Positions 10,883-10,920 of a stretch of 64,000 nucleotides of DNA are shown one piece after another. The stretch is from Escherichia phage Turkey5: the sequence record PQ471516.1; one strand, written 5' to 3'. The position numbers and the translations under genes are program-made. Positions within the stretch are counted from its first letter, which is position 1; every line of letters starts with the position of its first letter. Below the pieces are notes generated by a model that saw nothing but the letters and a program-made list of their open reading frames with translations, was not told the origin of the DNA and did no database searches.

Positions 10883-10910
10883 GGGACTCGCTTGACGAGT
10901 CCCTTTTTTT
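10883..10910 (+). terminator. intrinsic terminator after capsid gene
   Basis: gggactcg/cgagtccc stem with 5-nt loop followed by T7. Confidence 0.65.
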
Positions 10911-10920
10911 GTTTTATAAT
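10892..10920 (+). promoter_or_regulatory. putative sigma70-type promoter (TTGACG-N17-TATAAT) overlapping the terminator
   Basis: -35 hexamer lies in terminator loop/right arm; TATAAT at 10915-10920. Confidence 0.4.

Follow-up and report, generated by a model that had tools for sequence, protein, structure and literature searches.

In IS10, a fold-back of the RNA inhibits translation of the transposase on read-through transcripts, so that an RNA structure needing sequence upstream of the resident start insulates the unit. In phage T4, late promoters are located inside hairpins that hide a ribosome-binding site, as described for e, soc, 49, 25/26, I-TevI and segB, and for mobE of Aeh1 (PMC2988022). 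Promoter-coupled intrinsic terminators are known from A. baumannii, E. coli and B. subtilis: termination and start sites are at most 35 bp apart, mostly about 10 bp, the stem-loop DNA provides the -35 element and the T-tract the spacer, and the coupled promoter raises termination (Fletcher, ..., Grainger, bioRxiv 10.64898/2026.08.19.745784). Here we describe promoters that share their bases with hairpins in a 64,000-nucleotide stretch of Escherichia phage Turkey5 (PQ471516.1), referred to below as the window. An earlier note on this DNA had proposed one recurrent architecture, in which promoter hexamers are embedded in terminator-like hairpins at six junctions. The overlap of promoters and hairpins is real, enriched and largely under selection, but it is not one architecture, and the six sites turn out to be different things that had been lumped together.

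The window belongs to Asteriusvirus, a genus of RaK2/121Q-like jumbo myophages. It is 97-99% identical to vB_EcoM_JNE01 (JNE01), whose gene map was transferred to place the window genes, and ~80% identical to the other Asteriusvirus phages (121Q, PBECO4, G17, Turkey3, A4). Remoter relatives include RaK2, GAP32, CBB, Serratia BF, the Yersinia fHe-Yen9 phages, Munch and Hallingskeid. Nearly every gene lies on the + strand, as do all of the promoter-hairpin sites described below. Head genes (portal, scaffold, capsid) come first, then the tail fibre, then the replication genes (DNA polymerase, clamp, ssb, UvsX/Y/W, primase, helicase, RNR, IF3, ClpS, GyrB), and the intergenic gaps mostly measure 40-110 bp. 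A literature search returned no mapped transcriptome for any Asteriusvirus or RaK2-like phage, only RNA-seq of PA5oct, which comes without end mapping. All start sites given here are predicted from the spacing to the -10 element, the 3' ends are likewise predicted, and functional consequences are worded accordingly; promoter and hairpin counts cover the 64-kb window, a part of the genome.

The promoters of the window fall into recognisable classes. For CBB and GAP32, an RpoD-like class with an UP element, a divergent RpoD-like class with '-35 TGAAACG' and a -10, and a late ATAAATA class are distinguished, the second of which stands upstream of DNA-synthesis genes (PMC5259590). Window promoters match these classes exactly and precede the same kinds of genes. 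Most of them carry a -35 of TGAGACA, TGGAACA or TGGGACA 16 bp upstream (M class below); the combination of TGAAACG, TGAGACA or TGGAACA, a spacing of ~16 bp and (TGn)TATAAT before DNA-metabolism genes is that of the 'TGAAACG' class. The promoters behind the capsid gene and before the IF3 gene are RpoD-like, and ATAAATA motifs stand before structural genes. The accessible text of that work lists motifs and ARNold terminators separately and is silent on their overlap. The strand bias of the motifs is pronounced: TGNTATAAT occurs 14 times on the + strand and once on the - strand, and a stricter class-aware scan gives 24 and 2 strong promoter matches, respectively. Generic 9-of-12 sigma-70 matches occur at chance level in the window scan; the promoters used were 11-12/12 sigma-70 matches, extended -10 matches and class-specific matches. 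A first hairpin scan (798 hits) and a loose terminator scan (91 hits on the + strand, 171 on the -) were too permissive and were kept out of the statistics.

Hairpins are over-represented at these promoters. Between -40 and +35 around each -10, 7 of the 17 candidate promoters contain a perfect stem of 7 bp or more, against 1.7 +/- 1.3 expected from dinucleotide shuffles, none of which reached 7 in 1000 trials. Such a stem also accompanies 8 of the 12 intergenic late motifs, compared with 3.4 expected (P=0.005). The sites behind these counts differ in the order of promoter and hairpin and in the part of the promoter that the hairpin occupies.

The best case among the six listed sites for the mechanism put forward in the earlier note, that only RNA started upstream folds the hairpin, is the junction behind the tail fibre genes (14656-14720; shuffle P 0.011), because its predicted start falls within the 5' arm. 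An M-class promoter (GGAACA 14656-61, TGATACAAT 14675-83) is directly followed by a terminator with stem 14685-93/14705-13 and T6 at 14715-20, and the predicted start, A14690, is inside the 5' arm. A promoter directly abutting the terminator had been reported here; the adjacency is confirmed, and the order had been misdescribed, as the promoter lies upstream of the terminator and is neither embedded in it nor following it. The layout is found in 13 lineages from at least four genera (window/JNE01, G17, Turkey3, A4, Yen9-03, RaK2, Munch, GAP32, CBB, BF/pEa50, Hallingskeid, XbC2, XaC1), always as an A/T-rich tract, M-class -35, extended -10, stem of 9-13 bp, T6-9 and ribosome-binding site. A distant Vibrio relative has the ordinary order of terminator, then promoter. 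The stem begins 1-4 nt past the -10 in all 13 lineages though its sequence diverges, and it is that of a canonical terminator: G+C-rich, with pairing maintained and with a U-tract in 13/13 lineages. Pairing extends to 87.5% of alignment cells, as against 34-51% when the arms are slid, a value reached in 0 of 500 shuffles, and 8 of the 12 pairs display compensatory double changes.

The same lineages preserve a plausible start site. In 12 of 13 lineages, nucleotides 6 and 7 past the -10 are CA (XaC1 has TG); they lie within the 5' arm and give, at the canonical distance, the pyrimidine (-1) and purine (+1) of a start site. A start at this CA strips 3-6 bottom pairs from the stem, after which 2-6 unpaired nucleotides precede the U-tract; the predicted stability falls from -12 to -20 kcal/mol for the full hairpin to -2.4 to -11 from the predicted start. 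Upstream lie the late tail-fibre genes, with ATAAATA at 12886, and the promoter described is the only one found for the small open reading frame (ORF) and the DNA polymerase gene downstream. From these sequence features we infer that late read-through RNA would be terminated at this junction and that transcripts of the resident promoter would escape, beginning with a 5'-end hairpin. Their passage is expected because the only downstream gene of this strongly conserved promoter lies beyond the hairpin.

Another terminator (15071-15090) separates the 99-aa ORF from the DNA polymerase gene and covaries in all genera (GCCTCC/GGAGGC, GCCCC/GGGGC, TACCGC/GCGGTA). No recognisable promoter comes after it, so that the polymerase is apparently expressed by read-through.

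The reversed order recurs at the terminator after the clamp gene (19426-19464), where the late motif TATAAATA (19426-33) and AC precede the terminator GGGGAAC-atgga-GTTCCCC (19436-54) and ATAATTTTTTT. The predicted late start, G19439, lies inside the 5' arm and reduces the hairpin from -12.7 kcal/mol in full to -2.9. The stem is again G+C-rich and followed by a U-tract, and its pairing is kept by covariation in every lineage with an intergenic gap at this position (GGGGAAC, GGGAGC, GGGGAT and others, each with a matching 3' arm). Only the window, G17 and Turkey3 have the late motif itself. For RNA started upstream, the predicted 3' ends at the two reversed junctions are 14716-22 and 19458-64. 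Promoter-coupled terminators of bacteria terminate upstream of the start, whereas at these two junctions the order is reversed and the predicted start lies inside the stem, an arrangement for which we found no precedent.

At the sliding-clamp promoter (18604-18641; shuffle P 0.001, fold z=-5.1), the promoter is nested in the hairpin. The -35 GAGACA (18604-09) overlaps the 5' arm of a perfect 10-bp inverted repeat (18606-15/18632-41), and TGATATAAT (18623-31) lies in the 16-nt loop. Across lineages the 5' arm starts within or just after the -35, the loop holds the remaining spacer and TGnTATAAT, and the 3' arm follows the -10 by 0-1 nt and spans roughly -6 to +3. We guess that the arms are placed in promoter parts that tolerate sequence change. 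The hairpin measures 8-10 bp and is kept by covariation in four genera: the arms are wholly different between genera (GACAAGCACC, ACGTATACA, ACGGGTAC, GACGTACC, ACGCATCT, CAACACAAGC) yet remain complementary, with 88.6% of cells paired against 22-39% when slid, and 8 of 10 pairs show compensatory changes. RaK2 keeps the geometry within an intergenic region of 204 bp, so that shortage of space alone is no explanation for it; XaC1 is without it. In ~15 kb from each of seven genera, repeats of this kind recur consistently at the clamp promoter only, and in Asteriusvirus also at the first ssb promoter.

The perfect 10-bp hairpin with TGATATAAT in its loop is thus as the earlier note had it, and its description as terminator-like was mistaken, since no U-tract follows on the transcribed strand. 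In 12 lineages, the 10 nt after the stem contain 0-4 T on the + strand, and the loops are 14-20 nt long. The absence of a U-tract also sets the site apart from the promoter-coupled terminators, and the ribosome-binding site is outside the hairpin. The start of the clamp promoter is predicted at 18637-18640. To fold, the hairpin would need RNA transcribed across the entire promoter, or single-stranded DNA; it might be an element for processing or stability specific to read-through RNA, which is a guess. Promoters nested in a hairpin that lacks a U-tract have no precedent that we could find. Hairpin promoters of the N4 type, used by the virion RNA polymerase, have a 5-7 bp stem and a 3-nt loop and are without sigma-70 hexamers. 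The clamp promoter does not belong to them, its 14-20 nt loop carrying a canonical TGnTATAAT together with a -35. A protein operator was likewise rejected as an identity for the repeat on the covariation and the geometry.

The hairpin before the IF3 gene (56489-56525) had been grouped with the preceding one. The promoter, GCTTGACA-17-TATAAT, is a conserved 12/12 match whose -35 overlaps the upstream stop codon, and TTGACA does lie in the 11-nt loop of a 7-bp stem (56489-95/56507-13). The hairpin is, however, insignificant (P=0.087, z=-0.95), is followed by AAAATATATA in place of a T-run, which excludes a terminator here as well, and is confined to the window and JNE01. A conserved structure was rejected, as G17, Turkey3 and A4 keep the promoter with different 5-bp repeats or none.

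The junctions that come closest to the bacterial kind have the terminator first and the promoter after it. Behind the capsid gene (10881-10920; shuffle P 0.001, fold z=-5.1), the terminator AAGGGACTCG-cttga-CGAGTCCCTT forms a 10-bp stem (10881-10890/10896-10905) around the loop CTTGA and ends in a T-run. The -35 that the earlier note had placed within this terminator was confirmed on re-reading as TTGACG (10892-97), in the loop and the 3' arm; a 17-bp spacer leads to TATAAT (10915-20) and a predicted start at ~10927. In JNE01, G17, Turkey3 and A4, the stem is closed by a TTCG tetraloop, and a promoter with its own TTGACA stands apart from it, 10-20 nt downstream; ~22 bp of the G17 sequence, among them the -35 of this separate promoter, have been lost from the window. 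The compact form also occurs in Munch (TTGAC loop, TGCTATAAT) and Hallingskeid (TTGAT loop, TGTTATAAT), which rules out a layout peculiar to the window, although no phage in the database has the exact sequence. The -35 in the loop goes with a TATAAT 17 bp downstream in 3/3 lineages, and lineages with the TTCG loop have a separate promoter or none, never a TATAAT at 17-bp spacing. This co-occurrence suggests that the loop -35 is functional. The gene that follows (10944-12170) is a variable, mobile-nuclease-like ORF with CapR, DUF723, DUF4379 and MUG113 domains. It is replaced wholesale between close relatives and has no DNA similarity to JNE01; its nearest relatives at the DNA level are 'endonuclease' genes of the RaK2 group, at 67% identity.

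At the end of the UvsW helicase gene (32996-33028; P 0.011), the hairpin ACAGCGGG-ataac-CCCGCTGT has an 8-bp stem (32996-33003/33009-16) with the helicase stop codon inside the loop and a weak tail, TTCGTGAT. An M-class -35-like GGGATA (33001-06) occupies arm and loop, and TGATATAAT (33020-28) begins 3 nt past the stem, in accordance with the overlap noted before at 33000-33028; the predicted start is ~33035. The hairpin is present in window/JNE01, G17, Turkey3 and A4, and five Asteriusvirus lineages share an identical 3' arm between variable flanks. In EJP2, RaK2, CBB, PHA46 and Yen9-04, the promoter is retained, its -35 (GGAATG or GGGATG) overlying the stop codon, and there is no hairpin; the hairpin therefore evolved around a pre-existing -35. 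The third member of this group lies upstream of gyrB (60601-60661), where a terminator (60601-27) with T7 leads into a -35 GGAACA (60634-39) and TGATATAAT (60653-61).

The junction between nrdA and nrdB (48564-48605) is a doubtful member. Its terminator AATCCCAC-ttcg-GTGAGATT (48564-83), with a T-run, is real, having a UUCG loop and covariation in the stem (CCCAC/GTGGG versus CCCGC/GCGGG), and this part of the proposed overlap at 48566-48605 stands. The promoter part does not, and the overlap is not significant in shuffles. The TGATATAAT at 48597-605 corresponds in alignment to GGAG-N7-ATG, the start region of a 774-nt ORF. JNE01 and Turkey3 carry this ORF as an insertion, its deletion from the window has left a scar of ~45 nt, and G17 and A4 have neither the ORF nor the -10. 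A native promoter is accordingly rejected as the default reading, and TGATATAAT is a scar of the mobile ORF's Shine-Dalgarno sequence and ATG. GTGAGA in the 3' arm is a possible -35 for a promoter that is doubtful. The scar (48584-48646) has the same position as mobE of T4, and the JNE01 protein of the 774-nt ORF had no match in Pfam.

These four junctions share the features of the bacterial coupled terminators. A same-strand stem-loop and T-tract separate tandem genes, with clear T-runs at the capsid, nrdA/nrdB and gyrB junctions, and ARNold calls terminators at the orthologous sites of G17. The -10 lies just past the T-tract, which forms the spacer, and the -35 lies on stem-loop DNA or, upstream of gyrB, abuts the T-tract. 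The predicted distances from termination to start span about 9-34 bp, being ~10 bp behind the helicase gene, ~14 behind the capsid gene, ~21 between nrdA and nrdB and ~33 before gyrB; 3' ends are predicted at 10910-14 behind the capsid gene and at ~33022-26 behind the helicase gene. The bacterial study concerns chromosomes with mapped ends and makes no mention of phages (bioRxiv 10.64898/2026.08.19.745784), whereas the ends of the phage sites are predicted. The capsid and helicase junctions are members of the kind described in 2026.

Two further late-promoter sites belong to the classical T4 kind. At 12540-12571, upstream of a T5orf172 (GIY-YIG-like) gene, the late motif ATAAATA leads into a hairpin in which an anti-Shine-Dalgarno arm pairs with the Shine-Dalgarno sequence. 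The pairing is kept in nine lineages with differing sequences (CUUCAU/AUGGAG, CUCC/GGAG, CCCC/GGGG, CUUCC/GGAGG), and the predicted fold is -8 to -12.5 kcal/mol in read-through RNA and 0 to -3 from the predicted late start at ~12552. The arrangement looks like the control of I-TevI, segB and mobE in T4, in which translation would proceed from late transcripts only. At 57643-57697, between the ClpS gene and a KTSC-domain gene, late GATAAATA (57666-73) lies inside a 15-bp stem whose 3' arm carries the Shine-Dalgarno GGAG, with a T-run and ATG after it. The fold is -20.6 kcal/mol in read-through RNA versus 0 from the predicted late start at 57679 +/- 1; the shuffle P for the site is <0.001, and A4 has the compensatory pair AAGGT/ACCTT. 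This element would act as a joint terminator and ribosome-binding-site trap, on read-through RNA only.

Both sites share with the T4 examples the late motif, a Shine-Dalgarno sequence in the 3' arm and a fold available to read-through RNA only (PMC2988022). At the six junctions of the earlier note, the Shine-Dalgarno sequence is outside the hairpin and the ribosome-binding site is not hidden. The T4 hairpins act on translation, whereas the output of the two reversed-order terminators would be termination; the T4 promoters in question are late, whereas those named in the earlier note are sigma-70-type. The fold-back of IS10 also acts on translation and is neither a terminator nor of phage origin, in which it differs from the window sites.

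Weaker instances of nesting surround other late promoters of the head genes. The capsid-gene promoter TATAAATA (9607-14) lies in the loop of TTTTCAGT/ACTGAAAA (9597-9629), with one compensatory pair in the GAP32/CBB/BF group; the evidence is weaker in view of a shuffle P=0.09. The scaffold late promoter (8400-8429) has a similar clamp-like geometry, again with weaker support.

Upstream of ssb (gp32-like), the 279 bp at 27644-27922 contain three tandem extended -10 promoters, each with a hairpin beside it. The first (27660-27703; shuffle P <0.001) has TGATATAAT at 27660-68 and, 4 nt later, the hairpin TTTGTCGGAGG/CCTCCGACAAA, which covaries in G17, Turkey3 and A4 and is followed by a T-run in the window lineage only. 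In G17, Turkey3 and A4, TGTTTGTC directly after this -10 has two possible partners, GACAAACA at the -35 and a GACAAA that lies 20 nt downstream. Only the window and JNE01 possess the third promoter with its hairpin (27796-27825); the stem at 27796-27816 has a shuffle P of 0.052.

We consider it reasonably probable that such junctions are read at two levels. In the short intergenic regions, the same bases would serve as promoter DNA for the next unit and as an RNA hairpin for transcripts of the previous unit. The loops would hold the conserved promoter elements, namely the -35, TGnTATAAT or late TATAAATA, and the stems would use the change-tolerant parts upstream of the -35, in the spacer and at -6 to +3. 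The resident promoter would start within or downstream of the hairpin, so its own RNA could not fold it, and the hairpin would be reserved for read-through RNA. The capsid, helicase and gyrB junctions, and doubtfully nrdA/nrdB, would be the compact bacterial form of a terminator and its coupled promoter. At the two reversed junctions, transcripts of the preceding temporal class would terminate, and those of the resident promoter, lacking the G-C base of the stem, would pass; the remnant may be a protective 5'-end hairpin. The hairpins without a U-tract, at the clamp promoter and the capsid late promoter, might mark read-through RNA for processing or stabilise it, again as a guess, and at 12540 and 57643 the late promoter would lie inside a stem that hides the ribosome-binding site. 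More tentatively, and with somewhat less conviction than doubt, we propose that the reversed junctions are origin-selective terminators at the boundaries of temporal classes and that the clamp promoter, possibly with the capsid promoter, lies in a read-through-specific hairpin of an undescribed kind. The logic would be essentially the known one, a hairpin that overlaps a promoter and is read only by upstream transcripts, as at T4 late promoters and promoter-coupled terminators; a start inside a terminator stem and a promoter in a hairpin loop seem to be geometries not described before.

The mechanism advanced in the earlier note is partly supported, being in keeping with anatomy and conservation, and fares differently from site to site. 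It describes the tail fibre junction and the late-promoter sites fairly; those at 12540, 19426 and 57643, which the note did not include, fit its idea best. Behind the capsid and helicase genes it becomes trivial, as initiation inside the hairpin is not to be taken literally where the start lies downstream of the entire hairpin, and it fails at the clamp and IF3 promoters, whose hairpins are not terminators.

Part of the overlap could reflect nothing but compaction, short intergenic regions pushing the two elements together with no regulatory effect beyond the space saved. The prevailing gap length agrees with this, as does the ability of G17, Turkey3 and A4 to manage behind the capsid gene with a separate promoter 10-20 nt downstream, and of distant genera to do without the hairpin behind the helicase gene; the bacterial study, too, credits coupling with saved space (bioRxiv 10.64898/2026.08.19.745784). 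Compaction would not, however, explain why RaK2 nests the clamp -10 in a loop despite its 204-bp gap, nor why the spacing from -10 to stem at the tail fibre junction is held at 1-4 nt in 13 lineages as the stem sequence varies, and in bacteria the coupled promoters raise termination efficiency (bioRxiv 10.64898/2026.08.19.745784). As a general account we regard it as unlikely. A similarly low probability is assigned to the tail fibre terminator being an attenuator of its own promoter, with a start upstream of the stem, mostly ~35-nt RNA products, and leakage or a phage antiterminator needed for the polymerase operon. Promoter, hairpin and T7-9 are contiguous there, the truncated hairpins still have about -7 to -11 kcal/mol in several lineages, and attenuation is made plausible in the polymerase operon by the second conserved, promoterless terminator ahead of the polymerase gene. 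Such a start would nevertheless lie only 2-4 nt past the -10, which is abnormally close, the conserved CA at 6-7 sits within the stem, and the 30-nt leader offers no alternative antiterminator pairing.

The repeat at the clamp promoter invites other readings. It might be an intrinsic terminator for minus-strand transcription, in which the A-tract upstream of the -35, itself similar to an UP element, acts as the U-tract: in 12/12 lineages the minus strand has 5-10 T in the 12 nt after the hairpin, against the 0-4 in 10 nt of the + strand. We find this improbable, given that loops of 14-20 nt are atypical, that the window has no minus-strand late promoter motif, and that bidirectional terminators at 19434-56 and 20716-49 already shield the region from convergent genes. 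A/T-rich tracts moreover precede other promoters of the same class that have no repeat, as expected of UP elements (PMC5259590). The repeats at the clamp and IF3 promoters could instead act as DNA, either as the operator of a dimeric regulator or as a cruciform exposing a single-stranded -10. The arms are symmetric around the promoter core, and palindromes of terminators can double as transcription-factor sites (bioRxiv 10.64898/2026.08.19.745784). Set against this, the clamp arms differ fully between genera and keep their complementarity, the signature of base pairing and not of protein recognition, the template start base would be hidden in the stem of a cruciform, and the IF3 repeat is unconserved; an action as DNA is accordingly very improbable.

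The two-level reading has several observations against it. Short intergenic regions by themselves force terminators and promoters close together. The truncated tail fibre hairpins retain -9 to -11 kcal/mol in some lineages, with which partial termination would be possible, and the promoterless conserved terminator at 15071-15090 implies that leaky terminators seem normal, so that a bypass may be unneeded. The clamp and capsid hairpins lack a U-tract and leave the ribosome-binding site exposed. Two of the six cases in the earlier note are weak, namely the nrdA/nrdB promoter, which is dubious, and the hairpin at the IF3 promoter; the latter and the hairpin at 27796-27816 are incidental, being lineage-specific and compatible with chance. 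The literature yielded no mapped 5' or 3' ends for any phage of the RaK2-like group.

Other features of the window were recorded along with the promoters. A TTTGT(C/A) motif stands 5-10 nt after the -10 of M-class promoters (27669-27678, 27750-27758, 37914-37921, 50023-50032, 18632-18641). It is the reverse complement of the GACAAA core in the M-class -35, which gives built-in complementarity, and it may mark the start site at the G after TTT. Between divergent genes, an 11-bp inverted repeat TTCCATAAATA...TATTTATGGAA (36857-36900) carries ATAAATA in each arm, on its own strand. The repeat is kept in G17, Turkey3 and A4, its right arm overlaps the Shine-Dalgarno sequence of the gene at 36910, and it may represent overlapping divergent late promoters. 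A strong M-class promoter, CTGAGACA...TGCTATAAT at 17-46, is kept in G17 and points into ~480 bp without a convincing ORF or any Rfam or tRNA match; the region 17-524 may contain an unannotated small gene or a non-coding RNA. Rfam at gathering thresholds gave no match in the window, and ARAGORN no tRNAs. The large terminase frame (24674-26315) consists of two overlapping ORFs (24674-24994, 24978-26315) with a total length that is not a multiple of three. Two coding sequences are annotated in Turkey3 and A4 as well, one in G17, and JNE01 has an insertion of ~1 kb; the split may have arisen by a frameshift, from an intron scar or through a sequencing error. A divergent intergenic region of 449 bp at 22240-22470 holds a 76-aa ORF; it is mostly deleted in JNE01 and different in G17, Turkey3 and A4.

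The hairpin at the clamp promoter has very strong evolutionary support, and its -10, lying in what would be called a loop, illustrates how separate predictors of terminators and promoters would mislabel such junctions. Junctions of this kind are possible compact insulators for synthetic biology. If the predicted starts hold, promoter-terminator coupling extends from bacteria to phages, which would add a terminator blind to its own promoter, and a single junction of 60-100 bp would carry the terminator for one class of transcripts and the promoter for the next without cross-talk.

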